Part shown: positions 10,869 through 29,733 of the stretch, piece after piece | Layout: every line of letters starts with the position of its first letter | Position numbering within the stretch: position 1 is the stretch's first letter | NCBI GenBank assembly: GCA_000002445.1 | Contig: CP000067.1 | Coordinates: forward strand, 832,001 to 896,000 | Source of the DNA: Trypanosoma brucei | Taxonomy: Eukaryota | Reading direction: 5' to 3' | Length of the DNA stretch: 64,000 nucleotides | Notes under the pieces: generated by a model | Databases searched by the model: none | What the model saw: the letters and a program-made list of their open reading frames with translations, nothing else | What the model was told of the DNA's origin: nothing | Position numbers and translations under genes: made by a program

Positions 10869-10926
10869 ACCACCGCCGGTTTCGCGGGCGAATTTCTGTT
10901 ATAAACTTACTCCCGCAGTAAAAATA

Positions 10927-10999
10927 TGCGATCGGTGAGGCTCGAACTCACGACCTTGGGATTATGAAACCCACGCGCTGCCGACTGCGCCACGCTCGC
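10927..10999 (-). tRNA. tRNA-Met(CAT), elongator-type
   Basis: 73 nt with standard numbering. D-stem GCGC/GCGC; anticodon loop TTCATAA; T-arm GTGAG-TTCGAGC-CTCAC; G1:C72 and T54, so not initiator-like. A T5 run follows downstream. An identical copy lies at 28774-28846. Confidence 0.85.
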
Positions 11000-13900
11000 A
11001 GCAGCTTCCGTCACATTTCGGATTGCCTTTTAACGGCTGGAAATCAGTTTCCAACCAGCAGGCTCATTCTGTAAATTCGCGCTGGGAAGCTTACATCCGC
11101 TTCTTCTATGCGAACACAACAATATACTTTCAAAATAACTACTCACTGTGAAAGTATCATATTTTACTGTTTTTATGTCGTCCCACTGAAGGAGTTTGGT
11201 GTATACATGAAGCATCCGCCGCAACGACAGCTGAAATAACACCTTTTCTCCACGCGAACGCCATTGAATATGGGTTGCCTAGAGGACTGGACGGAACAAC
11301 GGGAAGTACGTGTACACGGCGTCTGGAGCTCGTAAAAAATTAAATGGAATAGTTATACTTGTATTTATTTCAACGGTTAAGAAGATTGATCGTTATGGTA
11401 AAAGTATGGAAAGAAGTAAAAATAAGGTAGCGTTGAATGAGGAGTCGTGAAGGGGATGAAAATGAAAGAATGCTCCAACTCGCAGACTTTATTCTCACTA
11501 ACTAGATCCGCTTTACCGTATATTTCAATGTAGTATAAGAGTGTTATTCTTCCGCGAGGTGAGTGTGAGATTTGTAAAGGTGAGCATCCCCTCACGCTGT
11601 TGGTACAGAGCCATCGGTGTCGGAAGCGGCTGCTGCCATATATCCGCGGAATGTGAATGACCTCCAGGAAACAGTAGAAGCCACCAGAAAGGAAGTAAAG
11701 TGAGATTTTCCCATGATAATCCTAGAATCAACGCTAGCCCTTGGTTTCTCACAAGTTTGTATCTTTTTTTTTCCTTTATCGTCTTGTTACGTTTTGCAAT
11801 TCACCCTTTTTTTTCGAGCCTCTCCTTAAACTTTTTTTTCAAGAACCTTTCTCGTTTCTTATTTAAATAATTATTAGAGTTTATATCCTGGATACCTTCA
11901 TGAAGTTCTTTTGCGTCCCTTTTTGAAACCTATGTGCATGGCACCGTTGTAATGTTTCACAAATCCTGTTGCATTCCATGCGATTGAGATTCATATCTTC
12001 CCTGGAGGCGTCAGAAATTGCAGAGTAATGGTGAGTTGAGTTTACCGTTAGGGGGAGGCCAAATGACTGTTCGCACCCTGTCATCAGGGAGACATGGCAG
12101 CTCACCGGCTGTTGGTTGTTGGGGTAACGGGGGAAGTGGAAACGATATTGGCTCCCTGATGTGGGAACCGATATCTTTGTTGTCCCTTGCACGCTCTTGC
12201 ATGTTCCCGTGGGCGTGTAGGGACAACTCCTGTTGTGGAGAAGACATCAGAGGCAACTGTAATTCACCTACTGGCGTATGGTAAGGGACTGTCTCTTCAA
12301 ATTTTTTGGGGGGAAAAAGGAAGGCTTCTTTTGCGTTTTGAAGGGGACATACATCCACGCGACGAAGAAGTGAAATGCAAAATGATGCCTGTATTTCCGG
12401 AACATTGATATAGCAAACCCTTCTAGGGGTTGACGAGTGTCAAAATCGGCAGAAAATAGCACAGGTAGAATGCAAGGCTCGTAACAAAATGGAAACTGGA
12501 AGAGTGTCAGTTAAACCGAAACTCGCTCAGGAGTAGTGGAACACACTCGTGTCAATATTTTTCTGTGGCCAAATCTGGAATCACCTGACCACTACTGGAA
12601 GGTTGCATGGAAGAGATAGTTTGAAGGTTTGCAGAAAGGCAATGGAGTAGCAATTCGACGAAGGAGGAAACTTAAATACCCCACATATCACGCGGAATGC
12701 TGCCTTGGAATAGGATTCCGCAGAATATGAGGGATAAATGTTATTGCCGCCTGAAGGAATAATAGTCACTTATAGGGATAGGGGTTTACGATGGGAATTA
12801 GGCAGTTCCTTCAGCTGTTGGAAGTTTTGAAGCAAATAGACAAGACAGCAAAAACAATGAACTTCCTGAGGAATCAGAGCAGGCAATGCAAAAGGCACTG
12901 ACCGAAGCGCAGAGTAGAACACGATACAAATGTAGATGGTGCGATTATTAGCGTGTTCATGTGTCGGGGCCCATTCTGCACACAAGGAACAAACACTCGG
13001 TGGAAGTTGGAATGAAAAAAGATACAAATGATAAAGCATCTCCGGCATCAAAGACAGCTCCAAAGACCCTCCAACGCTCGCAGTACAAAATGCGTGCAAC
13101 AAAGTGACCTCACTGAACTCATGCAGCGGAAAGGCGAATGCAAAATAGGAAAAAAAGCACAACACTGTAAAAAGTGGGTACTACTCATCTTCCCTAAAAC
13201 CGTCACAACACCCCTCCCCAGGAAGCGCTGCGTAGAGAAAGCGGTCGAAAATGCGGCAAACAGATGGTTGCCGTTTCGCATGCAACTGGCACGTTTCCAT
13301 GCAAGCTATTTCAACCAAAGGATTTGGAGCTAAACACAGAGGAGCGTCAACAGACTCAAGATAACTGTCAAAGGAATTCACACTGAAACGACCATGGGTT
13401 GGTTCAACACAAAAAAACACGCTCTTAATTAACTCTATAAGATTCTTTCGCATTCCACAGTTTCTCACGTCTCCACTGACTTGTTTCCTCTCTACGAAAA
13501 AGCAGCTCTACTTGTTTGCTACACGTATCTAAAGGGATACTGACACTTTTTTGAAACGTGTTCATCGCCTCATATCGCTTATCTTCAGACTGTTCCCACA
13601 AAGGAGCTGAAGAGCTTAATAAAAATAATAAAAATATGTTCGCATTCATACCATCAAACCCCAATAACGGAAAACATTGAAGAAAAGAATTTCCCTGCAG
13701 TTACTGATATAACATGAAGACCAACAAAAGAACTTACTCAACACTCCATAGATGGTATGTAATTAACATGCACCCAGAAACATACGCAGCCGATAGATAA
13801 TAGAAGGATCGAAATAAGTCCTCAAAATATATGCGATACAGCCTCCACTTTTTTTTTGACCTTCGCCTACGCACAAACCGCTATAAAATTGCTATGTTCC

Positions 13901-15179
13901 TTTTGAGTCGACAATTATTTTGCGTTTCTGTCAGCGCATATATCGATCTTTTCAAAAACTTTCAAACAATGCGTACAATCCTCCCCACCTAGGCAATTGC
14001 AACCAAATTTTACCAACCACCTTTACCACATATTTTGCCGAGAAAATACCCCGTGATTTGATTTTTCGTTAAATTTTTCGCCATGGAAAAGTGCATTTGT
14101 TGCTTTTCTTCGCTTCATTAATTTTACCACTTACTCTAGTAGTGTGTTTCAGGACCTCCAATAATTTGCTGCTATCGTTTATTTTGTTGGAGAATTTCTC
14201 TTCGCTAGATAAAACTTTACTGAAGGTTTTGAACGTTGTCAGTAAATCTGGCTTCTGCGGTGCACAAGCGCCGTATATTTATTTTTTTCATAAGTGCGTG
14301 CCTCAGAAATAGCACTTCCCTGGCTCAGTAATGGGACAACCACGCCCCTGTTGACTTTATTTTGAAGCTTTCTCTTACTACATCTCGGAGTAAGTTTCTT
14401 TCCCTCATGAGCTCATAAATTTCCACCACTGGTTCTTTCTCTTTTCTAGAGATGTCATTTTCACACGTCAAACCAGCTGTGATGACCTCAGATGTTCTAT
14501 TTTTTATTTTCAGTGTGGTCCCAAGGTCTCTTTCATGTAGTGAAGTTCCGGAATTGGTCTTTTATGGCTTTCATCTGTCTTTGTTCACTTCTTTTTTCAC
14601 TTTGTTTCTGCGAGTCACATATTCCAACCGTTGTCACTATGTTTTGTTAGCTCCTTGGTAGTATGTCTGTTCTGACCCACAGTAATCTGGCACTTCTTTC
14701 TTTCCATCCGTTCCATAGTGTTCATATAACCTCACCTTCGTCGTCGCAGACAAAACCATCATTTGCTCTTGATCACCTTCTTTGTACACGTAACGTTCTA
14801 TTTTCTCCCCCTTGCCATACACACGCAAATACGCAAAAATGGAGAGAAAAGTATACATCCTTGCAACCTGAACTCCCTTGTTTACCTATAACTTCAACAT
14901 AGTTCGGTCTTTTCTCGATCCACTGTATCCCCTTCTGAAAAAAAGACAAAGCATATGAGCGTACATGCTTCGTATCAAACGAAAACTCAAACTGAAGCAC
15001 GTGTGTGACCATGCATGCTCTCGCGTGATATTTAGTATCGTATACCTGTGCTACTAAGAAAATATAAAGATGCGCGCAAAGAGGAAAGGGGGTGTCTATG
15101 ACAATAGTGGCTCTGAAGATGAAGCTTAAAAAGGGAAGTAACACAAACGAGTGGAAACTGTATTCACACATTCTTGATA

Positions 15180-16109
15180 TTATACTGAAGACGCCATAAG
15201 ACTACTGAAAAGGGAATGGAGTTTGTCAGAGAGGGTGTCAATTCTGGAAGCACGTTCCGACAGCTTAGAAAGCATGACTTCAATTTCTGAGGATACATCA
15301 TTTATTTCTTTGAGGTGAGGAAGAAAAGACTTGAAAACTCTTGTTACGTTCACATCTTCTACCAGGCCGTATCTATTCGCAAGGACCTTGTCCCTACCCA
15401 AATTACCCCTTATTCCCCTGTGTTTGAAGATGTGTCCATGGGAAGTGGACACCGAATCAACTCTGTCAGCCAGTTTTCTTCCTCCAGTGCTATACGCCGT
15501 TCCATTGTGAAACCTCAAGTCGACGTGCTCGTCCCTGCTGCTGTCAAATTCGGTAATTATATCAGAAACGTCCCTTCCAGTTAAGGTTCCATCACACGTG
15601 ACTTGTATCCCATTATTCCTACAAAAGCCATGTGAATTATTCAGCATGCGCACTGCCTCCGATCCAACTCTGTACATCTCCTCCATTGTGGCTGCATACC
15701 TGGTTCCGGTTCTTACAACATCCATTGCCTTTTCCTCCATATAAGAAACACTAAGATCGAATTTCTTCCGTAAGTAGCTTTCACCTTCGAAAACACTCTC
15801 CATCTCATTTAATATTTCCTTCATTTTATCACCCTTCTCTTTTTTCATAAATGGTTTTCCGCGTAGGAATAATTCTCTCCACGCTGCATTCTGTTCTTCT
15901 GCCGAATACCTCTTCTCATACACCTCCTCTGCATGTACTCTAGTTCTTAAAAGTAGATCCTCCGTCACATTAATCATCCAATTAAGCTTCTTCACGACAC
16001 AGTCAATTTGTTTAAGGGTTGAGAGTGCTTCTTTATCAGTCTCCTGCATTCGAGAATCCACCAAGACAACAGAAATTGCAGCAAACACTACCGGAACTAT
16101 CCTCACCAT
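15180..16109 (-). CDS. Array gene B1: secreted-type ~310-aa protein of an unrecognised family, with signal peptide and no GPI-type C-terminus
   Basis: Start chosen at the internal Met (MVRIVPVVFAAISVVLV) of the 15180-16187 ORF, matching the signal-peptide starts of its paralogs. Conserved blocks are IDCVVKKLNWMINVTEDLLLRTRVHAEEVY and DKMKEILNEMESVFEGESYLRKKF. Confidence 0.7.
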   Translation of the reverse strand: MVRIVPVVFAAISVVLVDSRMQETDKEALSTLKQIDCVVKKLNWMINVTEDLLLRTRVHAEEVYEKRYSAEEQNAAWRELFLRGKPFMKKEKGDKMKEILNEMESVFEGESYLRKKFDLSVSYMEEKAMDVVRTGTRYAATMEEMYRVGSEAVRMLNNSHGFCRNNGIQVTCDGTLTGRDVSDIITEFDSSRDEHVDLRFHNGTAYSTGGRKLADRVDSVSTSHGHIFKHRGIRGNLGRDKVLANRYGLVEDVNVTRVFKSFLPHLKEINDVSSEIEVMLSKLSERASRIDTLSDKLHSLFSSLMASSV

Positions 16110-16254
16110 CCCAAGCACTTGTACCACGTAAAAGAGAACTACAGAAAAATACACGTTCTTTAAGAGAAGCACCACACACACACACACGCTAGTAGCGTGA
16201 AACTTACAATTGTAAAAATATTTTAGAAAATTACTAACATTTCCCCACCTATTT

Positions 16255-17439
16255 CTAAAACGGTACCAAGACGCACAAAAGCAACGCTACCCATGGTAGA
16301 GTTTGTTGAAACTTCACCACACCATTATTATCTTCACTATAATTATCATTCCATGGAGAATCCTTCGCGTTTCCTAATGTTTCCGTAAGTTCATTGGTCC
16401 TTTCCTTCATTTTAACAATACTTCTGACTTTTTCTTCAAGTTCCAGAAGCAACCTATCGAGTACAGCTCGTTGAGCTGTGATGGAGGTGTTTCCTGCAGA
16501 TATCTTTATGACGCTGGCACTCAGCAGATCGATTAGTTCCTGAAATTCTTCTCCAATAGAACTGAAGTTTGCCATAAGTCTGTCATTCTGTGTGTAAAAG
16601 AGGCCACCAGAAAGTTCATTGATAAAGGGCTTCTTCCCTTTTGTGTACGGCTGGTATGTCGTCGTGATATAGCATCCATAAACAGCATCGGCACCTTGAT
16701 CTCCTGCATTTCCCATAGTCAAACTGAGTTCTGTATTAAGAGGATTTTCATACTCAGCAAGGCCACCCTCGCTGTGCTGTGGTGGCTCAACTGTGCAGTC
16801 TCTGGGAACACTGCCGCGTTTACCACCTCTTATGCAATCGCCAGTTGCCCCTCCATCCACCACAAGACAGCAATTTCCATATCCTAGTGCTGCATGGTGG
16901 AAAACTTCCACCATATCCTTAATCCAGTACGCGTACGAGTCAGACATATTCAGAAGGTTCCACGATGGCAACCTCATAGCCCGCAGTGAAGTATTCATGT
17001 TTTTAATGCTTTTTTTTAACTCCAATAGTGACTCTTCCGTTTCAATCAACAACTTTGCCACCTCATTCACTCTTTTACCTCCATCTGGAATTACTTCTTT
17101 CAGAACATCCACTAAAATTGTTTTTGTTCGAACACGTGCACTGTAGTGAGCTACAATTTTTTCACAGTCTTCCACTATTTTCTCCCCGAATTTCATATTA
17201 TGTGTCACATTGTTCCTCAGTTCCCTCAGCTTCCTAACTATACTACAGATGGCATTTGCATCACTTTGTGTCAGTGCCTTGCCCTTACCCTTTTCATCAC
17301 CCTCCGGTCCACTGTTAGCACATGCCACCACCAGAAAACTAAACATAATCACCACTCCTCCAACTGAAATCATATTATCACCTTCATACACAAAACAAGC
17401 AAAAAGGAGCTTTGAAAGCATGTGCTTCTTATTCCCCAT
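16255..17439 (-). CDS. Array gene A1: ~395-aa predicted GPI-anchored surface glycoprotein of an unrecognised family
   Basis: N-terminal hydrophobic signal (an alternative start is Met23, MISVGGVVIMFSFLVVACA). Many NxS/T sites. Motif CCLVVDGGATGDC. Hydrophobic C-terminus LPWVALLLCVLVPF. The first ~135 codons are identical to A2 and A3. Confidence 0.75.
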   Translation of the reverse strand: MGNKKHMLSKLLFACFVYEGDNMISVGGVVIMFSFLVVACANSGPEGDEKGKGKALTQSDANAICSIVRKLRELRNNVTHNMKFGEKIVEDCEKIVAHYSARVRTKTILVDVLKEVIPDGGKRVNEVAKLLIETEESLLELKKSIKNMNTSLRAMRLPSWNLLNMSDSYAYWIKDMVEVFHHAALGYGNCCLVVDGGATGDCIRGGKRGSVPRDCTVEPPQHSEGGLAEYENPLNTELSLTMGNAGDQGADAVYGCYITTTYQPYTKGKKPFINELSGGLFYTQNDRLMANFSSIGEEFQELIDLLSASVIKISAGNTSITAQRAVLDRLLLELEEKVRSIVKMKERTNELTETLGNAKDSPWNDNYSEDNNGVVKFQQTLPWVALLLCVLVPF

Positions 17440-17728
17440 ATCATACTGTTATTCAAGTAAAGACAAATCTTCGCTGACACATTATCAAGGCACCCAAAAA
17501 CATGATATCGCAATGCGACCACACGTAGTCGGCCAGAAGCAGCAATAGCATATAAACACACATTCATATTTGCACATGCACATTCATTTCATGGTTATTG
17601 GACGGTTATTTTATGGTTATTTGCAAGAGGAGGGTGCAGTGAGAGTGTTAATACTGCTGACAGTTGTTGAGGCACAGGGTGTAAAAAGAGAAGGTGAGCG
17701 AAAGAGGCGTGTGTTCTCTTTTTCATTT

Positions 17729-18658
17729 TTAAGCTGTGGATATGGTGATGCTGCTGAAGATTGACTGGAGTTCCTTTTCGAGAGCGTCGATTCTGGAAGT
17801 TTGTTCCAACAGCTTGGAAGGCGTGGCTTCAATTTCGGAGATGATGTCGTTGATTTCTCTTAGAGGTGTGACAAACAACTTGAGAAGCTCTGATGCATTC
17901 ACCTTTTCTACCGAGCGAAGTTTATTCGTTTGGACGTTGTCTTTACCCAAATTGTTCCTTATTCCTCTGTGCTTGAGGACGAGCCCAAGGGAGGTGGACG
18001 CCGTATTGACTTTATCGGCCAATTTGTTTCCCCCATGGCTCTGAAACCCTCCACCGGTAAATGACAAGTCCATATAATCAGCGTCGCTGTCGAAATCGCC
18101 AACAATACCGGAAATATCTTTCCCAACAAAAGTTGTCCCGCACTTGACGTATGCACCATTATCCCCACAATAGCCATGCGACTTATTTACAATACATACT
18201 GCCTCTAATCCAACTCTGTACATCTCCACCATTGTGGCTGCATACCTGGTTCCGGTTCTTACAACATCCATCACCTTTTCCTCCAGATAAGAAACATTAA
18301 GGTTAAATTTCTTCCGTAAGTAGCTTTCACCTTCGAAAACACTCTCCATCTCATTTAATATTTCCTTCATTTTATCACCCTTCTGTTTTTTCATAAATGG
18401 TTTTACGTACACGAATAATCGTTCCCAGGCTGCGTATCTTTCCTCCGCCGAATACCTCTTCTCATACACCTCCTCTGCATGCACTCTAGTTCTTAAAAGT
18501 AGATCCTCCGTCACATTAATCATCCAATTAAGTTTCTTCACGACACAGTCAATTTGGTTAAGAGTTGTCAGTGACTCGTCGTTGTCCGCTTCTGGTGACA
18601 TGTTCTCTGCCAACACAACCCAAACTACAAAAAGCATCACTAGAAGTATCCTTATCAT
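17729..18658 (-). CDS. Array gene B2 (309 aa): signal peptide, no anchor signal
   Basis: MIRILLVMLFVVWVVLA signal. Conserved B-family blocks. C-terminus SIFSSITISTA is not hydrophobic. Confidence 0.75.
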   Translation of the reverse strand: MIRILLVMLFVVWVVLAENMSPEADNDESLTTLNQIDCVVKKLNWMINVTEDLLLRTRVHAEEVYEKRYSAEERYAAWERLFVYVKPFMKKQKGDKMKEILNEMESVFEGESYLRKKFNLNVSYLEEKVMDVVRTGTRYAATMVEMYRVGLEAVCIVNKSHGYCGDNGAYVKCGTTFVGKDISGIVGDFDSDADYMDLSFTGGGFQSHGGNKLADKVNTASTSLGLVLKHRGIRNNLGKDNVQTNKLRSVEKVNASELLKLFVTPLREINDIISEIEATPSKLLEQTSRIDALEKELQSIFSSITISTA

Positions 18659-18779
18659 CCTATAAACTTATTCCACACAAAATCGAACTACAGAAAATAA
18701 TGCCCCTTTCCGGAAAGAGACCACACCGCTAGTAACATGAAGCTGTTATTAAAAATATTTTATAAAATTACTCACTTTC

Positions 18780-19970
18780 TCAACTATTTCCAAATACAAA
18801 TGGGAGAAGAAGCAGAGCCACTCCTAGCAGAGTTTGCTGAACCCTTGCTACACTGTCACTCTCATTACTCTCTTTATCATTCCAATGAATATGTTTCACT
18901 ATTCCTAGTGTTTCTGTAAGTTCATTGGTTGTTTCCTTTTTTTCCAGAATATATCTGACTCTTTCTTCAAGTTCCAGAAGCAACCTATCGAGTACAGCTC
19001 GTTGAGCTGTGATGGAGGTGTTTCCTGCAGATATCTTTATGACGCTGGCACTCAGCAGATCGATTAGTTCCTGAAATTCTTCTCCAATAGAACTGAAGTT
19101 GGCAACGACGTTGTTATTCTGTGTGTAAAAGAGTCCTCCTGAAAGTTCATAAATGAGAGATTTCCTCCCCGAAGTGTAAGACTGATGTGTCGTCGTGATA
19201 TAGCAGCCATACTCCGAGTAGTTTCTGTAGTTTCCTGCATTTCCCATCGTTAAAGTGAGTCCTTCATCAAGAGGGTTTTTGTACTCAGCAAGGCTACCCT
19301 CGCTGCGCTGTAGCGGCTCAACTATGCAGTCTCTGGGAACACTGCCGCGTTTACCGTTCTTCATGCAATCGCCCGTTGCCCCTCCATCCACCACAAGACA
19401 ACAACTTAGAGTGCTAAGTGCCGCGTGGGCAAAACTCTCCACCGTGTCCTTAATCCAGTACGCGTACGAGTCAGACATATTCAGAAGGTTCCACGATGGC
19501 AACCTCATATATCCAAGCGACGAATGCATTTGCGCAACTAAATTTCTTAATTCATCTTTCAGTACTTTCATATCGCTCAAAAGCTTTATTATTTCAGTTA
19601 AAATTTCATCTTCTTCCGGAATTACTTCTTTCAAAACATCCACTAAAATTGTTTTTGTTTGAACACGTGCACTGTAGTGAGCTACAATTTTTTCACAGTC
19701 TTCCACTATTTTCTCCCCGAATTTCATATTATGTGTCACATTGTTCCTCAGTTCCCTCAGCTTCCTAACTATACTACAGATGGCATTTGCATCACTTTGT
19801 GTCAGTGCCTTGCCCTTACCCTTTTCATCACCCTCCGGTCCACTGTTAGCACATGCCACCACCAGAAAACTAAACATAATCACCACTCCTCCAACTGAAA
19901 TCATATTATCACCTTCATACACAAAACAAGCAAAAAGGAGCTTTGAAAGCATGTGCTTCTTATTCCCCAT
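18780..19970 (-). CDS. Array gene A2 (396 aa): predicted GPI-anchored surface glycoprotein
   Basis: The 5' ~400 nt are identical to A1 and A3. The central region is divergent. C-terminus LLGVALLLLPFVFGNS is hydrophobic. Confidence 0.75.
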   Translation of the reverse strand: MGNKKHMLSKLLFACFVYEGDNMISVGGVVIMFSFLVVACANSGPEGDEKGKGKALTQSDANAICSIVRKLRELRNNVTHNMKFGEKIVEDCEKIVAHYSARVQTKTILVDVLKEVIPEEDEILTEIIKLLSDMKVLKDELRNLVAQMHSSLGYMRLPSWNLLNMSDSYAYWIKDTVESFAHAALSTLSCCLVVDGGATGDCMKNGKRGSVPRDCIVEPLQRSEGSLAEYKNPLDEGLTLTMGNAGNYRNYSEYGCYITTTHQSYTSGRKSLIYELSGGLFYTQNNNVVANFSSIGEEFQELIDLLSASVIKISAGNTSITAQRAVLDRLLLELEERVRYILEKKETTNELTETLGIVKHIHWNDKESNESDSVARVQQTLLGVALLLLPFVFGNS

Positions 19971-20259
19971 ATCATACTGTTATTCAAGTAAAGACAAATC
20001 TTCGCTGACACATTATCAAGGCACCCAAAAACATGATATCGCAATGCGACCACACGTAGTCGGCCAGAAGCAGCAATAGCATATAAACACACATTCATAT
20101 TTGCACATGCATATTCATTTCGTGGTTATTGGACGGTTATTTTATGGTTATTTGCAAGAGGAGGGTGCAGTGAAAGTGTTAATACTGCTGACAGTTGTTG
20201 AGGCACAGGGTGTAAAAAGAGAAGGTGAGCGAAAGAGGCGTGTGTTCTCTTTTTCATTT

Positions 20260-21204
20260 TTAAGCTGTGGATATGGTGATGCTGCTGAAGATTGACTGGA
20301 GTTCCTTTTCGAGAGCGTCGATTCTGGAAGTTTGTTCCAACAGCTTGGAAGGTGTGGCTTCAATTTCGGAGATGATGTCGTTGATTTCTCTTAGAGGTGT
20401 AATAAAGGACTTGAATATCCTTGGTGAGTGAACAAACTCTACCAAGCCGTTTCCATTCGTGATGACCTTGGATTTACCCAAGTTACTTCTTATTCCTCTG
20501 TGCTTGATGATGTGCCCATAAGAGGTGGACGCCGCATTAACTTTATCGGCCAACTTGCTGCCTCCGTGTCCGCTCTGCGCTACTTTCTGTGTTTTCCTGT
20601 TTTGGAATGACAAGTCGATGTGTTCAGAGCTGTTTTCCAACACTCTAACGACGTCAGAAATGTCTTTCCCAACAAAAGTTGTCCCGCACTTGACGTATGC
20701 ACCATTATCCCCACAATAGCCATGCGACTTATTTACAATACATACTGCCTCTAATCCAACTCTGTACATCTCCACCATTGTGGCTGCATACCTGGTTCCG
20801 GTTCTTACAACATCCATCACCTTTTCCTCCAGATAAGAAACATTAAGGTTAAATTTCTTCCGTAAGTAGCTTTCACCTTCGAAAACACTCTCCATCTCAT
20901 TTAATATTTCCTTCATTTTATCACCCTTCTCTTTTCTCACAAAGTTTTTTACGTATACGTATAATTCTTTCCATGTTGTGAACCTTTCCTCTAGTGAATA
21001 CTTTTTCCCATACACCTCCTCTGCATGCACTCTAGTTCTTAAAAGTAGATCCTCCGTCACATTAATCATCCAATTAAGTTTCTTCACGACACAGTCGATT
21101 CTTTTTAGAGTAAAGCATGGTTCTCTATAACTCACCTGTGTTCTTCCAGCATATGGCAACACAAAGAAAACGACGGTAACGGTCACTTGACTTATCTTAA
21201 TCAT
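20260..21204 (-). CDS. Array gene B3 (314 aa): signal peptide, no anchor signal
   Basis: MIKISQVTVTVVFFVLPYA signal. Shares the IDCVVKKLNWMINV and DKMKEILNEMESVFEGESYLRKKF blocks. The C-terminus is identical to B2. Confidence 0.75.
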   Translation of the reverse strand: MIKISQVTVTVVFFVLPYAGRTQVSYREPCFTLKRIDCVVKKLNWMINVTEDLLLRTRVHAEEVYGKKYSLEERFTTWKELYVYVKNFVRKEKGDKMKEILNEMESVFEGESYLRKKFNLNVSYLEEKVMDVVRTGTRYAATMVEMYRVGLEAVCIVNKSHGYCGDNGAYVKCGTTFVGKDISDVVRVLENSSEHIDLSFQNRKTQKVAQSGHGGSKLADKVNAASTSYGHIIKHRGIRSNLGKSKVITNGNGLVEFVHSPRIFKSFITPLREINDIISEIEATPSKLLEQTSRIDALEKELQSIFSSITISTA

Positions 21205-21337
21205 TCCACACTCTTACTTCAGGAAAAACTAAGCCAGTTCGAAGAGCGTACCTTTTTTGGAAGGGCACATCGCTTACACGCTAGTAGTAATAAGCTGTCA
21301 ATTGCACAAATATTTTAGAAAATTACACACTTTCCAC

Positions 21338-22525
21338 CTATTTCCAAAATACAGAAAAGACGAAAAGAAGCAGAGCCACTTCTGATAGATTTGGTTTCTT
21401 GCTCATACCATCACTCTCATAACTCTCATTATCATACCAGGAAACATCTTCTATGCTTCCTAATCTTTTCGTAACATCCATGACTCTCTTTTTCCTTTTA
21501 AGGATATCTCCAACTTCTTCCTCAAACCTCAGTAACAAGCTGTGGAGTATAGTTCGTTGACCTGTGATAGATGTGTTCCACGTGAAAATGTCGCTGATAC
21601 TAGTGTTCAGTTGATCGATTAGTTCCTGAAATTCTTTTCCAACAGAACTGAAGTTGGCAACGACGTTGTTATTCTGTGTGTAAAAGAGTCCTCCTGAAAG
21701 TTCATTTATAAAGGATTTCTTTGTATTAAAGCCACCTGCGGTGCTTGTGATGTAGCAACCGTAACTATTTGGGGTTTTACCGTAGTTTCCTGAATTTCCC
21801 ATAGTCAAACTGAGTTCTGTATTAAGAGGATTTTCATACTCAGCAAGGCTACCCTCGCTGTGCTGTGGTGGCTCAACTATGCAGTCTCTGGGAACTATTC
21901 CTCGTTTTCGGTCAAAGGGACAATCTTCCATTGACCCTCCATCTACCACAAGACAGCAACTCCCGGGGCTAAACGCTGCATAGTGAAAAAAATCCACCAT
22001 ATCCTTAATCCAGTACGCATATGAGTCCGATATATTTACAAGGTTCCACGATGGCAACCTCATAGCCCGCAGTGAAGCATTCATGCTCGTAATTGTCTTC
22101 CCTAATCCATCCCTCAGTTCCCCCATCTTCTCCAGGATTCTTTCCATCCCACTGAAACTTGACTTTTCTTCTGCCATTACTTTCTCCAACACGCTCACCA
22201 GCATTTTCTTAGACATAACTTTCGCGCCGTAGTAACTTTTCACGTCTTCAGCCTCGTCCACTATTTTCTCCCCGAATTTCATATTATGTGTCACATTGTT
22301 CCTCAGCTCCCTCAGCTTCCTAACTATACTACAGATGGCATTTGCATCACTTTGTGTCAGTGCCTTGCCCTTACCCTTTTCATCACCCTCCGGTCCACTG
22401 TTAGCACATGCCACCACCAGAAAACTAAACATAATCACCACTCCTCCAACTGAAATCATATTATCACCTTCATACACAAAACAAGCAAAAAGGAGCTTTG
22501 AAAGCATGTGCTTCTTATTCCCCAT
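21338..22525 (-). CDS. Array gene A3 (395 aa): predicted GPI-anchored surface glycoprotein
   Basis: Same N-terminus as A1 and A2. Motif CCLVVDGGSMEDC. C-terminus LSEVALLLFVFSVFWK. Confidence 0.75.
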   Translation of the reverse strand: MGNKKHMLSKLLFACFVYEGDNMISVGGVVIMFSFLVVACANSGPEGDEKGKGKALTQSDANAICSIVRKLRELRNNVTHNMKFGEKIVDEAEDVKSYYGAKVMSKKMLVSVLEKVMAEEKSSFSGMERILEKMGELRDGLGKTITSMNASLRAMRLPSWNLVNISDSYAYWIKDMVDFFHYAAFSPGSCCLVVDGGSMEDCPFDRKRGIVPRDCIVEPPQHSEGSLAEYENPLNTELSLTMGNSGNYGKTPNSYGCYITSTAGGFNTKKSFINELSGGLFYTQNNNVVANFSSVGKEFQELIDQLNTSISDIFTWNTSITGQRTILHSLLLRFEEEVGDILKRKKRVMDVTKRLGSIEDVSWYDNESYESDGMSKKPNLSEVALLLFVFSVFWK

Positions 22526-22813
22526 ATCATACTGTTATTCAAGTAAAGACAAATCTTCGCTGACACATTATCAAGGCACCCAAAAACATGATATCGCAAT
22601 GCGACCACACGTAGTCGGCCAGAAGCAGCAATAGCATATAAACACACATTCATATTTGCACATGCATATTCATTTCATGGTTATTGGACGGTTATTTTAT
22701 GGTTATTTGCAAGAGGAGGGTGCAGTGAAAGTGTTAATACTGCTGATGCTTGTAATTAACATTGGCTCAAAAGGAATTATGTTCACGCATTTTTTTTATT
22801 ATACTGAAGACGC

Positions 22814-23740
22814 TCAAAGGCTGTTAAAGAGGGATTCAAGTTTCTTTTCGAGAATAGAAAACTTGTGAACACGTTCCGACAGCTTGGAAGGTGTGGCTTC
22901 AACTTCGGAGGTGAGATTACCGACTTCCCTTAGATGTGTGACAAACAACTTGAGAAGCTTCGCTGCACTCACGTGTTCTACCAAGTCGCGTTCATCCATG
23001 AGAACTCTGGCCTTTCCCAAACTATTACCTATTCCTCTGTGCTTGATGACACGTCCAAACGTGGTCGATACATTATGAACTCTATCAGCCAGCTTGTTTC
23101 CCCCTTTACTCCAGTGACCTCCGTTCTCAAACCTTAGATCTATATTTTCTTCAGTGCCGCTACCAAATTCAGCAACGATAATAGATAAATTTCCCCCAGA
23201 GAAGGCTCTCTCGCATGTAACATTGGCTTCATAAATTTCACAACTTTTTGGTACTTCTTTTCCAGAACGCACAGCTTCCAATCCAACTCTGTACATCTCC
23301 TCCATTGTGGCTGAATACCTGATACCGACTCTTACAATAGTCATCATTTTTTTTTCAAAGTAAGAAACATTAAGGTTAAAGTTTTTCTGCAAGTAGCTTT
23401 CAGTTTCAACGATTCTCTCCATCTCATTTAATATTTCCTTCATTTTATCACCCTTCTGTTTTTTCATAAATGGTTTTACGTACACGAATAATCGTTCCCA
23501 GGCTGCGTATCTTTCCTCCAGCAAATACTTCTTTTTATATACCTTTTCTGCATGCACTCTAGCTCTTAAAAGTAGATCCTCCGTCACATTAATCATCCAA
23601 TTAAGCTTCTTCACGACACAGTCAATTTGCTTAAGAGTTGAGAGAGATTCATCTCCGTGTGTTGTTTCCGCTATAACCCCCCAAAAAACAACTAGAACAA
23701 CTAAAGTGACAGCAAACACCACCTGAATCATCCTCATCAT
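22814..23740 (-). CDS. Array gene B4 (308 aa): signal peptide, no anchor signal
   Basis: MMRMIQVVFAVTLVVLVVFWGVIA signal. Conserved B blocks with a more divergent C-terminal half. Confidence 0.7.
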   Translation of the reverse strand: MMRMIQVVFAVTLVVLVVFWGVIAETTHGDESLSTLKQIDCVVKKLNWMINVTEDLLLRARVHAEKVYKKKYLLEERYAAWERLFVYVKPFMKKQKGDKMKEILNEMERIVETESYLQKNFNLNVSYFEKKMMTIVRVGIRYSATMEEMYRVGLEAVRSGKEVPKSCEIYEANVTCERAFSGGNLSIIVAEFGSGTEENIDLRFENGGHWSKGGNKLADRVHNVSTTFGRVIKHRGIGNSLGKARVLMDERDLVEHVSAAKLLKLFVTHLREVGNLTSEVEATPSKLSERVHKFSILEKKLESLFNSL

Positions 23741-23870
23741 ATGTACCTATTCCACGAAAAGCGAATCACAGGAAAACGTGTAGCCTTTAGTAAGGGTACA
23801 ACACACGCGGTAGTAGAACATAATTGTCGTCTGTATAAATATTTTAGATCACTTACTTCTCCACATACTT

Positions 23871-25019
23871 TTAGAAGAATACCAGGAAGAATAGAAACAG
23901 ACTCACCCCTCGGAGGGTTGGTTGCGTCCCCATACCATCGCTATTCCCACTCTCGTTACCAAACCATGGAATGTTCTTCGTGCTACCTAATGCTTCCGTA
24001 ATTGCTTTGTTCTTTTCTTTCTCAAGGACATGTCTGATTTCTTTCTTCAGCTTAAGTAGCAAACCATCGAGTACAGCTCGTTGTCTTGTAATTGATGTGT
24101 TCCACGCGGAAAAATTGTTTGTGACTCTTCTTAGCGGATCGATTAGCTCCTGAAATTCCTTTCCAACAAAAGTGAAGTTGGCCATAAGTCTGTTATTCTG
24201 TGTGTAAAAGAGGCCACCAGAAAGTTCATAAATGAGAGATTTTTTCCCCCTGCTGTAAGTGTCATTTGTTGTTGTGATGAAGCAGCCACATAGCGGGTAT
24301 TCGCCTTCGTCCCCTGCATTTCCCATCGTTAAAGTGAGTCCTTCATCAAGAGGGTTTTTGTACTCAGCAAGGCCACCCTCGCTGCGCTGTGGCGGGTAAA
24401 TAGTGCAATCCGTGGGGACACTGCCGCGTTTACCACCTCTTATGCAATCTCCCGTTGCCCCTCCATCCACCACAAGACAACAATTCCCGCTTCCGAATGC
24501 TGTCTGGGCAAAGAGTTCTACCATATCTTTCACCCAGTACGCATACGAGTCAGACATATTTGTGAGGTTCCACATTTGCACACTCATGCACCCGAGTGAA
24601 GCGTTCACATTCGTAATACTTCTTTTCAACACCTGGATCGGCTCCTCCATATCACTCAGCAGCTTTCCCATCACGCTCAACTTTTCTCCTTCTTCAGGAA
24701 TTAGTTTTCCCAAAACCTTCACTAACATTTTCTTTGCTTCAACACGTGTGCTGTAGTAAGTAGCAACGTTTTCGCCATTGTCCACGATTTTTTCACCCAA
24801 TTTCATATTACGCGTCACGTTATTTGCCAACTCCCTCAACTGTTTGACCACATTGCAAATGGCATCTGCATCACTTTGCGTCAGCGCCTTGCCCTTACCC
24901 TCGATGTCACCCTCCGCTTGACCGTAAGCACATACCACCACTAAACAAGCCACAACCATTCCCCTTTTGAGTGGCATCATATTATCCCCTCCTTCCAGAA
25001 ACGCAAGAAAGGCAAACAA
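23871..25019 (-). CDS. Array gene A4 (382 aa): divergent A-type predicted GPI-anchored surface glycoprotein
   Basis: Different signal peptide (MMPLKRGMVVACLVVVCAYG), but it shares ALTQSDADAICNVVKQLRELANNVT, CCLVVDGGATGDCIRGGKRGSVP and the ELSGGLFYTQNN blocks. C-terminus LRGVSLFLFFLVFF. Confidence 0.7.
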   Translation of the reverse strand: MFAFLAFLEGGDNMMPLKRGMVVACLVVVCAYGQAEGDIEGKGKALTQSDADAICNVVKQLRELANNVTRNMKLGEKIVDNGENVATYYSTRVEAKKMLVKVLGKLIPEEGEKLSVMGKLLSDMEEPIQVLKRSITNVNASLGCMSVQMWNLTNMSDSYAYWVKDMVELFAQTAFGSGNCCLVVDGGATGDCIRGGKRGSVPTDCTIYPPQRSEGGLAEYKNPLDEGLTLTMGNAGDEGEYPLCGCFITTTNDTYSRGKKSLIYELSGGLFYTQNNRLMANFTFVGKEFQELIDPLRRVTNNFSAWNTSITRQRAVLDGLLLKLKKEIRHVLEKEKNKAITEALGSTKNIPWFGNESGNSDGMGTQPTLRGVSLFLFFLVFF

Positions 25020-25092: not shown

Positions 25093-26325
25093 TTACGAAA
25101 ACACCAACAAAACAAAAATGCTCACCATTAAATCGAAATGGGCATCACCCTCCGTGTCAACATCCAAATTTTCTGCCTTGCCCCAGATATCTATGTTTCC
25201 TCCAAGTTTGTACTCAAGAAACATTTCCTCAGCGTCATGCTGTAAATCTTCCAACTCGTAAATATGGGAGTTTGCTTCACTTTCATACTTCTCCATGTCT
25301 TCCATGTTCTTTGTGGCATTGGTGAGACGATTGTGCCACGGTATGCCGCCATGGGATAAGGTGTGTTTGTAATTCACACACGTTGTTCCGGGTCTGTGGC
25401 CATCACATAGAAATGTTTCATTACTCGTATCATTCACGTGGCCAAATACGCCTTCCACCTGAAACTTGTCCTGCCTCATGTTAACAGATTTATCAAACTC
25501 CTCCAATGCAGCCTTTAACAGCTTTGAGTTGGATGCAATGTGCCTGTACACGCATCCGCGCTTTACCACTTGCCAAGCATCTTTGAGTGTCATTGATGAA
25601 TTAACCTCACATTTCTCTTCGGCCAAGGCGCACTCATTGCTCATGCCCGTCCACTTATTTTTTTCTGGTCGCCTCAAGTAGGTCCTGCAGGGCGAACTAT
25701 GCCCGTTGTAATAGTAGCTGCTGCTGTTCGCCTCGTCTTTCGCCTCTCCCACACATACACAAAAAAAGTCGTTAACAAGTGTTTTTCCAGTTTCATTACC
25801 GTTGCTTCCACAGCTTTCCAGAGCAGATTCATTGCTGTTGAACAGTAAACTTTTATTAGTTTCCATAATATCGTCAATGGGTCTGTTGGTCTTATGTGCC
25901 TCATCCACTAAATCACCATACACAGCTTTCATCATGCTCTCCTCAGCCTTACTGCTCTCCCGCATCGCCCTCTTTCTATTCCTGTCAATCTCTCCCTTCA
26001 CCGCTTTTGCTCTTTTGTATAGTTTCTCAATCCCTTCACGCGCCTTTTGGCTCACAGAAGTTTCTTTTCCGTTCGCTCTCGCCTCACTCACCATTACCTC
26101 GAACCTCTTCATAATCTCATCTTCCTTCTCACGGTTTCTAAATTCCGGCCTTGGCACCTTTGCTTGAGTGATCCTGTAAATCTTACAAAGGATCTCAAAC
26201 TCTCCGGTGTTGTGTTGGTAATCAGTAATGTTGAAAACACCCTTCTGTTGACCCTGACTTCCTCTTATTGATCCCCATAAAAGAGCAACCAACAATAGCA
26301 CCCCAGCGCAACCACGTCTCTTCAT
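25093..26325 (-). CDS. Gene C1 (410 aa): predicted GPI-anchored, Cys-containing, charged helical surface protein; paralog of C2
   Basis: Signal MKRRGCAGVLLLVALLWGSIRG. Motifs LVNDFFCVCVGE and CVNYKHTL are shared with C2. Multiple NxS/T sites. Hydrophobic C-terminus LMVSIFVLLVFS. Confidence 0.7.
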   Translation of the reverse strand: MKRRGCAGVLLLVALLWGSIRGSQGQQKGVFNITDYQHNTGEFEILCKIYRITQAKVPRPEFRNREKEDEIMKRFEVMVSEARANGKETSVSQKAREGIEKLYKRAKAVKGEIDRNRKRAMRESSKAEESMMKAVYGDLVDEAHKTNRPIDDIMETNKSLLFNSNESALESCGSNGNETGKTLVNDFFCVCVGEAKDEANSSSYYYNGHSSPCRTYLRRPEKNKWTGMSNECALAEEKCEVNSSMTLKDAWQVVKRGCVYRHIASNSKLLKAALEEFDKSVNMRQDKFQVEGVFGHVNDTSNETFLCDGHRPGTTCVNYKHTLSHGGIPWHNRLTNATKNMEDMEKYESEANSHIYELEDLQHDAEEMFLEYKLGGNIDIWGKAENLDVDTEGDAHFDLMVSIFVLLVFS

Positions 26326-26435: not shown

Positions 26436-27767
26436 TTAAGCGACAAAGGCAGTCAGCGCCATCATTGCTAAAACAGTCAAAGATATTGAAAAGCCGGCCC
26501 CATCCTCTTCCACCTCGTTCACTTCACTCTCCATCATTAAGTGTTCCAAATTCAAGTTAATCTTTGCTGCTGCACTTTTCATATTCTCCGCTAATTTCCA
26601 CAGCCTTCCAAGCAAAACCTTTGCCTCCTTATTGTGCCTTTCCATTTCCACCAGGTACTTCTCCGCATCCAGCAACCTCAGCTGCCACTCAATTCCCTTC
26701 TGCGTCAGAAGTCTATACGCATAATTCACGCACATTTGGTCATTCTTCCCCGTGCATATGTTTTCGCTGCGGTCAAAAACACCCGTATGTATTTTTTTTG
26801 CTCTCCCAAACACGTAGGTCCGAAATCCCTCCGATTCTTTCATGTTCATGATTATATTCTCCCTCTGCCTTCCAAGAAGCTTATTGAACTCCCTCACTGC
26901 ATCTTGGATTTTTTCTGGCGTTATCAATTTCAAATTTTCATTTTTTGGACAGGCTTCATCCTTTATCTTAAACCAGCCGGGGCCAAAAGCCACATCACTT
27001 CCATCATACGACACATTTTTCCACAGTTTCTTTCTACCCGGCCCCTTGATACTTTTGTGACAAACGGTCTCATTATTCTCTTCTCCAACGCACAAGCAAA
27101 AAAAGTCCCCCACGAGCGAACGCCCAGCCATGGCATCCTCAGTCGAGGGATGATACCCAGCTCCGCACGTTTCCTCTGCGGAGTTTCCTATTAAAGTGTC
27201 TCCGGTGTGCACCGCAAACTTTTCAAACTCCTCCTTCTCCATCAGCCTCCCAGCATTCGCCCCATAAACGACTTGCGCCATTCTTTCGAGTGCAAATTTC
27301 CTTGACACATTCGCCAGGCGCCGTTCCTCTCTTATTCCACTCACGAGTATGGTTGCCTTTTCCGCTAGTTTTATTAACTTCTCATGTGTTACCCTCCACC
27401 GAATAATATCATTTGCACGATGCATACTCATCTTAGCGGCCCCACTATTGTTAACTGTTCCTTTCCTCCTTTCCATAGCTTCTTTATACAAGGAATCCTT
27501 CACGTATGTCGCTTTCACAAACATCTGTAGCCTGTCGATGATACTCGTTAGATTCGCAGGCTCTTCCATTATTTTCTCTGGTTCCCCCTCCGCCAACCTC
27601 AATATCTCACACATTTGGTTGAACTCTTTTTCATTCACTAACTTTGAATCCTCTCCACACACCAAGTGGAAGGCACCAAAGGCCGTTAACAAGAATGTCA
27701 CTATGATTTCCTTCATTATCAAAGCCCTGCTACAAACAAAAAGAAAGTAAAGGCACCAACAAGACAA
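26436..27767 (-). CDS. Gene C2 (443 aa): predicted GPI-anchored surface protein; paralog of C1
   Basis: The probable start is the internal MKEIIVTFLLTAFGAFHLVCG signal at 27716. Motifs LVGDFFCLCVGE and CVNYAYRL. Hydrophobic C-terminus SLTVLAMMALTAFVA. Confidence 0.7.
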   Translation of the reverse strand: MSCWCLYFLFVCSRALIMKEIIVTFLLTAFGAFHLVCGEDSKLVNEKEFNQMCEILRLAEGEPEKIMEEPANLTSIIDRLQMFVKATYVKDSLYKEAMERRKGTVNNSGAAKMSMHRANDIIRWRVTHEKLIKLAEKATILVSGIREERRLANVSRKFALERMAQVVYGANAGRLMEKEEFEKFAVHTGDTLIGNSAEETCGAGYHPSTEDAMAGRSLVGDFFCLCVGEENNETVCHKSIKGPGRKKLWKNVSYDGSDVAFGPGWFKIKDEACPKNENLKLITPEKIQDAVREFNKLLGRQRENIIMNMKESEGFRTYVFGRAKKIHTGVFDRSENICTGKNDQMCVNYAYRLLTQKGIEWQLRLLDAEKYLVEMERHNKEAKVLLGRLWKLAENMKSAAAKINLNLEHLMMESEVNEVEEDGAGFSISLTVLAMMALTAFVA

Positions 27768-28773: not shown

Positions 28774-28846
28774 GCGAGCGTGGCGCAGTCGGCAGCGCGT
28801 GGGTTTCATAATCCCAAGGTCGTGAGTTCGAGCCTCACCGATCGCA
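28774..28846 (+). tRNA. tRNA-Met(CAT), elongator-type, second copy
   Basis: Sequence identical to the 10927-10999 copy, in opposite orientation. Divergent from tRNA-Glu, 87 bp away. T6 run at 28848-28853. Confidence 0.85.
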
Positions 28847-28847
28847 C

Positions 28848-28853
28848 TTTTTT
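28848..28853 (+). terminator. RNA polymerase III T6 terminator for tRNA-Met
   Basis: A T6 run begins 2 nt after the discriminator base. Confidence 0.6.
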
Positions 28854-29011: not shown

Positions 29012-29733
29012 CCACCACCGTCAGTCGTTTTCGTGTTTAAATCAATTGAACTGAGGAAATGATACAAAAATTGCCGGAGCGGGCAAGCGCTGATGGTCTA
29101 GGTGGTTATGACGTCGCTTTAACACGGCGAAGGTCTCGGGTTCGAGTCCCGATCGGCGTAGGTTTTCGTCATTTCTCCGTTTCCCTCAATTTTGCTGCCG
29201 TGAAATTTTAATGTTCGGATGAAAGGGGAAGAGGGATTGAGATTGTGCGTGTGTGTGTGGCCTGAGGTGGTGACATTTGGGACGGAAACGAATGAAAGGA
29301 AAAGGGGTCGCTGTTTTAGTTACTAATGAAGCAGCATATCCATTATTCATTACATCGAGAGTAACATCCCCATCAACTAAAACGTGAGTCAGTGGACGGC
29401 TCGTCTCTTTTTGCTCTTTGCCTTGCTTTGCTTTTTCTTTTATTGGGTTGGTTGAGAAAGCAATGCTAAAATACCAGAAAGGCAGGGAGAGGATGACCCC
29501 CATACCAACAGAGTTCAAACATCACCTCACGAGGCTGCAATGTGTGGCGGGGTGTTGCGGTGCTGCTGCAAACATTCCATCAAATGCCCCACTGGTCATT
29601 ATAAAAGAGGAAGGTATTGGACCCGTGCTGTCATGGGAAACTGGAACTGGGCTGGGAAAGGAACAGTGACAGGAGGAAAAATAAGGGAAAACAAATGTGT
29701 GCAATATGTCCTTTTTTTTCATGGTTTTGGAGA
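29012..29733. repeat. Inverted repeat, right arm (722 bp), containing tRNA-Val and a 12-nt relic of the tRNA-Leu 3' end
   Basis: CCACCACCGTCA (T-stem plus acceptor 3' strand of tRNA-Leu) is retained at 29012-29023, but the rest of the gene is absent. Homology then continues through tRNA-Val to 29733. Confidence 0.85.
29087..29160 (+). tRNA. tRNA-Val(AAC), second copy inside the inverted repeat
   Basis: Identical to the 10652-10725 copy. A T4 run follows immediately. Confidence 0.9.

Follow-up and report, generated by a model that had tools for sequence, protein, structure and literature searches.

Organization of the array

We examined a 64,000-nucleotide stretch of Trypanosoma brucei DNA (GenBank assembly GCA_000002445.1, contig CP000067.1, forward-strand positions 832,001 to 896,000; hereafter the window, whose numbering is used throughout) that holds a tandem array of two alternating surface-glycoprotein-like genes, here called A and B. 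The open reading frame (ORF) listing gives eight intact minus-strand ORFs in strict A-B alternation at 15180-25019, which are transcribed in the order A4, B4, A3, B3, A2, B2, A1, B1 (Table 1). Both types encode a leader, and only A encodes a tail of the glycosylphosphatidylinositol (GPI) type, as the original prediction had described from the nucleotide sequence. Its placement of the array was also right, but the outer ends were drawn slightly too wide for B1 (extended to a GTG) and A4 (extended to a TTG). The four units measure 2494-2555 bp, in agreement with the ~2.5 kb claimed for them, and the distance from the A stop codon to the next B ATG is 121-145 nt in all four. There are no additional copies of A or B elsewhere in the 64-kb window. 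The A1-B1 spacer (16110-16254) contains a (GT)n microsatellite, gtgtgtgtgtgtgtg, that the other A-to-B spacers lack.

Mechanical ORF calling yields 382-396 aa for A and 308-335 aa for B; counting B1 from its ATG makes it 309 aa long and narrows the B range to 308-314 aa. In A1-A3 the ORF begins with a 22-residue extension, MGNKKHMLSKLLFACFVYEGDN (17374-17439, 19905-19970 and 22460-22525), within which a polypyrimidine tract is followed by AG. Because the next methionine, Met23, is invariant (6/6 A proteins), because A4 (369 aa in the NCBI model P0004) and one T. b. gambiense copy begin there, and because of this internal tract and AG, the annotated extension is probably 5' untranslated region (UTR). 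The probable true starts, Met23 for all four A genes and the ATG for B1, are those used in Table 1.

The locus is the annotated Tb927.4.3200-.3270 on chromosome 4 of T. b. brucei TREU927, and the array is already known. A1 matches XP_844471 and B2 matches XP_844472, both hypothetical proteins of TREU927, at 100% identity, and A4 matches XP_844477 from chromosome 4 of that strain. All other A and B homologues come from the T. brucei group; in T. b. gambiense, the A orthologues carry the name "ESAG11-related protein". Gene identifiers for A and B were taken from Table S1 of Jackson 2013 (PMC3605285) and from Carnes 2015. The former lists Fam3 (Tb927.4.3270, ESAG11-related protein; signal peptide and GPI signal, 7 members) and Fam4 (Tb927.4.3260, hypothetical protein; signal peptide, no GPI signal, 4 members), both T. 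brucei-specific, the latter with "no similarity to known proteins". A1 and A4 correspond to the listed genes Tb927.4.3210/.3270, and inspection of A shows a signal peptide as well as a GPI signal. A thus belongs to the Fam3 example set and shares its T. brucei-restricted distribution, but these copies are chromosome-internal, unlike genes of a telomeric expression site. B has a signal peptide, no GPI signal, a T. brucei-only distribution and four TREU927 members, as in Fam4, of which Tb927.4.3260 is the example; what differs from the published description is the three-helix-bundle fold now predicted for it.

The proposal that the array represents an unrecognised family is consequently wrong, since Jackson 2013, Jensen 2009 (PMC2771046), Jackson 2010 (PMC2854126) and Carnes 2015 all deal with it. 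Carnes 2015 describes a four-fold tandem of a two-gene repeat. Jensen 2009 noticed the interspersed genes and raised the possibility that the hypothetical ORFs are 3' UTRs belonging to the ESAG11-related genes. In Jackson 2010 the locus is tandem array 22, with a unit of 2515 sites, significant recombination by the pairwise homoplasy index (PHI, p<0.001), at least 9-10 recombination breakpoints, and no isoforms common to different subspecies. Gadelha 2015 localised an ESAG11 that is another gene, Tb927.1.5110, and in other transcriptome papers ESAG11 likewise refers to other loci.

An exhaustive profile search with B against 1.84 billion representatives matched T. brucei copies only. Neither A nor B has a Pfam family at E<=1, whereas two neighbouring genes match VSG_B at 1e-27 and 1e-36, and comparison of the A and B profiles with Protein Data Bank (PDB) sequences gave coiled-coil noise only.

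The A proteins are 58-76% identical to one another and the B proteins 60-75%. In A, a hydrophobic leader starts at Met23 and a hydrophobic tail of 12-16 residues closes the protein, preceded by candidate omega sites of the SDG/SDS/NNG type and a spacer of 7-9 residues. Six mature cysteines of A are invariant, and its CCLVVDGG(A/S)xxDC motif reads CCLVVDGGATGDC in A1, A2 and A4 and CCLVVDGGSMEDC in A3. B has its only hydrophobic segment at the N-terminus and no C-terminal anchor. N-x-S/T sequons number 6-9 in A and 4-6 in B, where one, NVT, is invariant. Three cysteines of B are invariant (C38, C164 and C173), and a fourth, C155, is restricted to B2, B3 and the T. b. gambiense copies. Because the cysteine count of B1 and B4 is odd, these two proteins possibly carry a free thiol.

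Copy number, mosaicism and coding constraint

We compared the array between strains. The syntenic locus of T. b. gambiense DAL972 reads A-B-A-B, two pairs with both B genes intact (2/2), and the T. brucei-group assembly GCA_003543875.1 has three pairs, again with all B genes intact (3/3). In the latter, the middle A (L001, 12562-13739) is split by a frameshift into two ORFs of 199 and 207 aa; this copy is a pseudogene unless the assembly is in error there. According to Carnes 2015, T. evansi STIB805 largely lacks the repeat or has it disrupted, and the annotation of T. b. gambiense includes only four array genes and that of Lister 427 none. Strains thus have 0, 2, 3 or 4 pairs, and alternation is kept wherever the array is present. 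Because alternation survives these changes in copy number, the A-B pair is the unit of duplication, as had been predicted, and the two-pair and three-pair arrays retain it. The same pattern is nonetheless expected from unequal crossing-over of any two-gene unit, so alternation in itself proves little; the table of Jackson 2010 has paired sub-entries in other arrays, for example adenosine transporter plus iron-ascorbate oxidoreductase.

An alignment of the four units is a mosaic in which blocks of 98-100% identity alternate with blocks of 46-63%. The former, shared by several units, cover the start of A (~200-300 nt) and the B-to-A spacer of 355 nt; the latter cover the A-to-B spacer and the middle parts of the A and B genes. 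This mosaic agrees with the published recombination tests.

Nei-Gojobori ratios of nonsynonymous to synonymous substitution (dN/dS) between paralogues are 0.30-0.48 for A and 0.34-0.59 for B, with dS of 0.29-0.97. Because these ratios lie well below 1 at substantial dS, both A and B are under purifying, protein-level constraint. Positive selection on exposed regions was rejected, as no 30-codon window has a dN/dS above 1.

These data bear on the proposal of Jensen 2009 that the B ORFs are 3' UTR parts of the upstream A genes, in which case only A would be made as protein. The short spacers between the A stop and the B ATG are compatible with it, as are their short polypyrimidine tracts (7-9 nt); microarray signals also co-vary between neighbours in that study, and we found no spliced-leader-site data for B in the supplements searched. 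The B ORFs, however, are intact in TREU927 (4/4) as in the two other assemblies, and their dN/dS stays within the range given above despite dS of up to 0.9. The leader, the NVT sequon and the three cysteines are conserved, and an alignment of just six B sequences suffices for structure prediction to return a fold typical of the lineage. A TTTT(T)C(C)TG..AG element lies 12-35 nt upstream of the B ATG in all four of the diverged A-to-B spacers (4/4) and is plausibly a minimal trans-splice acceptor. Spacers as short (110-112 nt) separate the VSG-related genes next to the array. Because B is constrained, because the splice-like element is kept and because short spacers occur elsewhere, both the 3' UTR reading and a reading of B as a pseudogene are disfavoured; we consider the former highly improbable. 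The possibility that the B genes are untranslated pseudogenes had been raised with the original prediction, and the intact, constrained ORFs speak against it.

Predicted fold of B and comparison with A

To place B structurally, the B2 protein was modelled with AlphaFold2 (AF2) from the six-sequence alignment, giving a mean predicted local distance difference test (pLDDT) of 72.2 and a predicted template modelling score (pTM) of 0.67. The model has helices at residues 28-88, 91-158 and 263-308 and an irregular segment of ~104 residues at 159-262. In a Foldseek search of 350,542 chains, the top nine matches are all trypanosome receptors (probability 0.9-1.0). The best PDB matches are HpHbR, the factor H receptor, ISG65 and MISP, and ESAG6/ESAG7 chains occur at ranks 6, 7 and 11. 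B is thus predicted, at fold level only, to belong to the three-helix-bundle class of trypanosome surface proteins. It would share the elongated three-helix-bundle ectodomain of HpHbR, GARP/FHR, ISG65 and MISP, but it differs from them in lacking sequence similarity and an anchor and in the ~104-residue insert between helices 2 and 3. The earlier claim that these proteins resemble no ISG, BARP or VSG therefore stands for sequence and fails for fold, in that B is predicted to adopt the bundle common to HpHbR, GARP/FHR, ISG65, MISP, VSG and ESAG6/7.

The A model is of low confidence and suggests a helix-turn-helix-insert-helix layout, as in B. Sequence homology between A and B was rejected: hhalign gave P = 0.04 with full alignments and 0.17 with mature regions, a co-linear and non-significant match. 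Its score of 17.4 lies within the column- and block-shuffle nulls (11/60 column shuffles reach or exceed the real score), and reversed B scored 24.7; the original observation that A and B are not similar in sequence is borne out. The predicted secondary-structure maps overlay best at an offset of +30, where agreement reaches 78%; the figure for all offsets is 58 +/- 11%. Predicted element lengths are near-equal (helix 1 ~60, helix 2 ~65 and the insert ~104 residues), and two landmarks are offset by similar distances: the cysteine at the start of helix 1 by 27 and the invariant NVT sequon by 29. This match in layout is suggestive, and it would fit either ancient paralogy or a common superfamily plan.

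The arrangement of a GPI-anchored next to an anchor-less gene had led to the idea that A and B form a heterodimeric receptor of the ESAG6/ESAG7 kind, with the pair kept because both subunits are needed. The array and the ESAG6/ESAG7 transferrin receptor (Fam15) are alike in being adjacent tandem pairs, one member with and one without a GPI signal, of secretory glycoproteins built, for B by prediction and for A possibly, as helical bundles. Consistent with such a receptor, this adjacency is kept in every unit and in every strain examined, neighbouring array genes are similarly expressed in Jensen 2009, B has a predicted receptor-type fold without an anchor of its own, A and B share a predicted helix layout, the invariant cysteines of B are odd in number, and the ESAG6/ESAG7 chains are within the Foldseek matches of B. 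Nevertheless, A and B are not detectable paralogues, whereas ESAG6 and ESAG7 are near-identical ones (Jackson 2013), and the ESAG6/ESAG7 pair lies at a telomeric expression-site promoter, whereas the A-B array lies in a chromosome-internal, tRNA-flanked island. Co-duplication is automatic under unequal crossing-over, and paired arrays exist elsewhere (Jackson 2010). Any A-B receptor would also be dispensable, because the array is missing in STIB805 and is not annotated in Lister 427. We therefore consider a heterodimer unlikely. The nearest structural relatives of B act as monomers, which also counts against it.

A more specific version holds that A and B are very old, diverged paralogues on the three-helix-bundle plan that form a GPI-anchored/soluble heterodimer, a second, non-VSG-type two-subunit receptor of T. 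brucei, in which variable copy number and mosaic heads would tune the binding of host or vector ligands. To this we attach little probability.

Expression of the array genes

Published transcript signal for the array is low in both bloodstream and procyclic forms. Jackson 2013 (Table S1) gives values of 365-1538 for Fam3 and 265-915 for Fam4, which are low and non-stage-specific. Jensen 2009 reports a modest cluster signal, below 3000, that may be background, finds no RNA polymerase II (Pol II) start-site chromatin, and describes neighbouring array genes with very similar expression patterns. Searches of Gadelha 2015, Savage 2016, Nilsson 2010, Silvester 2018 and a 2026 pangenome preprint for expression, spliced-leader-site or proteomic data gave nothing on Tb927.4.32xx; Savage 2016 has the neighbouring gene Tb927.4.3290 only.

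Low expression raises the question of whether the island is a relic, transcriptionally near-silent, without present function and in the process of disappearing from the T. brucei lineage. The values in Table S1 of Jackson 2013 are the lowest of the T. brucei-specific families, and the missing start-site chromatin and possible background signal of Jensen 2009 point the same way, as do the array's absence or disruption in STIB805, its lack of annotation in Lister 427, its reduction to two pairs in T. b. gambiense, and the one frameshifted A in GCA_003543875.1. Against loss of function, none of the eight TREU927 ORFs is broken, a dN/dS well below 1 would not be expected of long-silent DNA when dS is substantial, ongoing gene conversion maintains identical blocks, and tsetse-stage and in-vivo tissue forms lie outside the sampled stages. 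On balance, a functionless relic seems to us quite unlikely.

Genomic island context

Together with two VSG-related genes, the array forms an island of ~18 kb bracketed by tRNA clusters, with housekeeping genes outside it on both sides. The brackets include inverted repeats (Table 1), likely substrates if the island were to invert or be lost. For T. evansi, Carnes 2015 suspected that an inversion had occurred, and the same paper noted that tRNA genes flank the region. Jensen 2009 placed the cluster "between rRNA and tRNA clusters", whereas an Rfam scan of the window returned tRNAs only and no rRNA.

Table 1. Positions of the array genes and of flanking features in the window.
Feature	Position	Strand	Gene ID (assigned by inference)	Remarks
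A4, Fam3 ESAG11-related	23871..24980	-	Tb927.4.3270	signal peptide and GPI-type tail; mechanical ORF to TTG 25019
B4, Fam4	22814..23740	-	Tb927.4.3260	signal peptide, without anchor
A3, Fam3	21338..22459	-		start at invariant Met23; ORF ATG at 22525
B3, Fam4	20260..21204	-		
A2, Fam3	18780..19904	-		start at invariant Met23; ORF ATG at 19970
B2, Fam4 (XP_844472)	17729..18658	-		protein used for the structure model
A1, Fam3 (XP_844471)	16255..17373	-	Tb927.4.3210	start at Met23; ORF ATG at 17439
B1, Fam4	15180..16109	-	Tb927.4.3200	ATG 16109; mechanical ORF from GTG 16187
Two VSG-related genes (Pfam VSG_B)	25093-26325, 26436-27767	-		directly upstream of A4
Inverted repeat, left arm, 722 bp, 99.2% identity	10080..10800	.		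contains tRNA-Val(AAC)
Inverted repeat, right arm, 722 bp	29012..29732	.		
80-bp inverted repeat, tRNA-Met(CAT)	10920-10999 and 28774-28853	.		

The two VSG-related genes share 24% identity, encode C-terminal hydrophobic tails and have the 110-112-nt spacers mentioned above. One of them is probably Tb927.4.3290, a predicted GPI protein common only to T. congolense besides (Savage 2012), whose RPKM is very low in tsetse stages (Savage 2016). Over the ~4 kb from the left tRNA cluster to B1 (11000-15180), ORFs do not exceed 132 aa and Rfam gives no match; at ~12-14 kb the AT skew is opposite to that of the surroundings.

Discussion

The locus is the known four-fold Fam3/Fam4 array and its genes are constrained; we think it probable that it forms a dispensable, strain-variable island of accessory surface genes. 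A core function is argued against by the strain-variable array, by the low transcript levels and by the existence of two-gene arrays of other genes in T. brucei.

Several points weigh against this interpretation. The signal-peptide and GPI calls come from inspection of hydrophobicity and motifs, without SignalP or a GPI predictor. The A profile search recovered six A-type proteins only, none named ESAG11; the A-ESAG11 link comes from the annotation of other authors and, because of that search result, the relationship must be regarded as remote. The Foldseek statistics for B are modest (E-values of 6.7e-3 and weaker, TM-scores of 0.3-0.48), and long helical bundles commonly draw generic matches. 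Finally, the supplements searched hold no proteomic, spliced-leader-site or tsetse-stage data on Tb927.4.32xx.

Unequal crossing-over of whole units is the most likely cause of growth and shrinkage of the array, giving 0, 2, 3 or 4 pairs by strain, and gene conversion homogenises it patch-wise. B would be a glycoprotein of the secretory pathway with an elongated three-helix-bundle ectodomain typical of trypanosome receptors and coats and no membrane anchor; its N-terminal end may be membrane-distal, and a variable insert of ~100 residues would lie between helices 2 and 3. A would combine a B-like helix layout with a GPI signal and may thus be located at the plasma membrane. The island itself, between inverted tRNA-bearing repeats at a convergent strand-switch region, appears dispensable and strain-variable, and its transcription in cultured bloodstream and procyclic forms is probably only weak. 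The proteins it encodes would most likely serve to bind a host or vector ligand, or to shield against one, in circumstances still unsampled, and B may be released or may be retained at the surface via a partner, possibly A.

The locus had already been annotated and its genes placed in families, and four papers had discussed it. The modest additions made here are the coding constraint on B, its predicted fold, the architectural match between A and B, and the inverted repeats around the island. If A and B did pair, African trypanosomes would have just two known heterodimeric surface receptors, this being the second. With B as a genuine, constrained gene with a receptor-like predicted fold, it is reasonable to treat the pair as a low-priority candidate for an accessory receptor or shield, and the variation in its copy number between T. 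brucei strains points to a non-essential role, possibly one that is host- or vector-specific.

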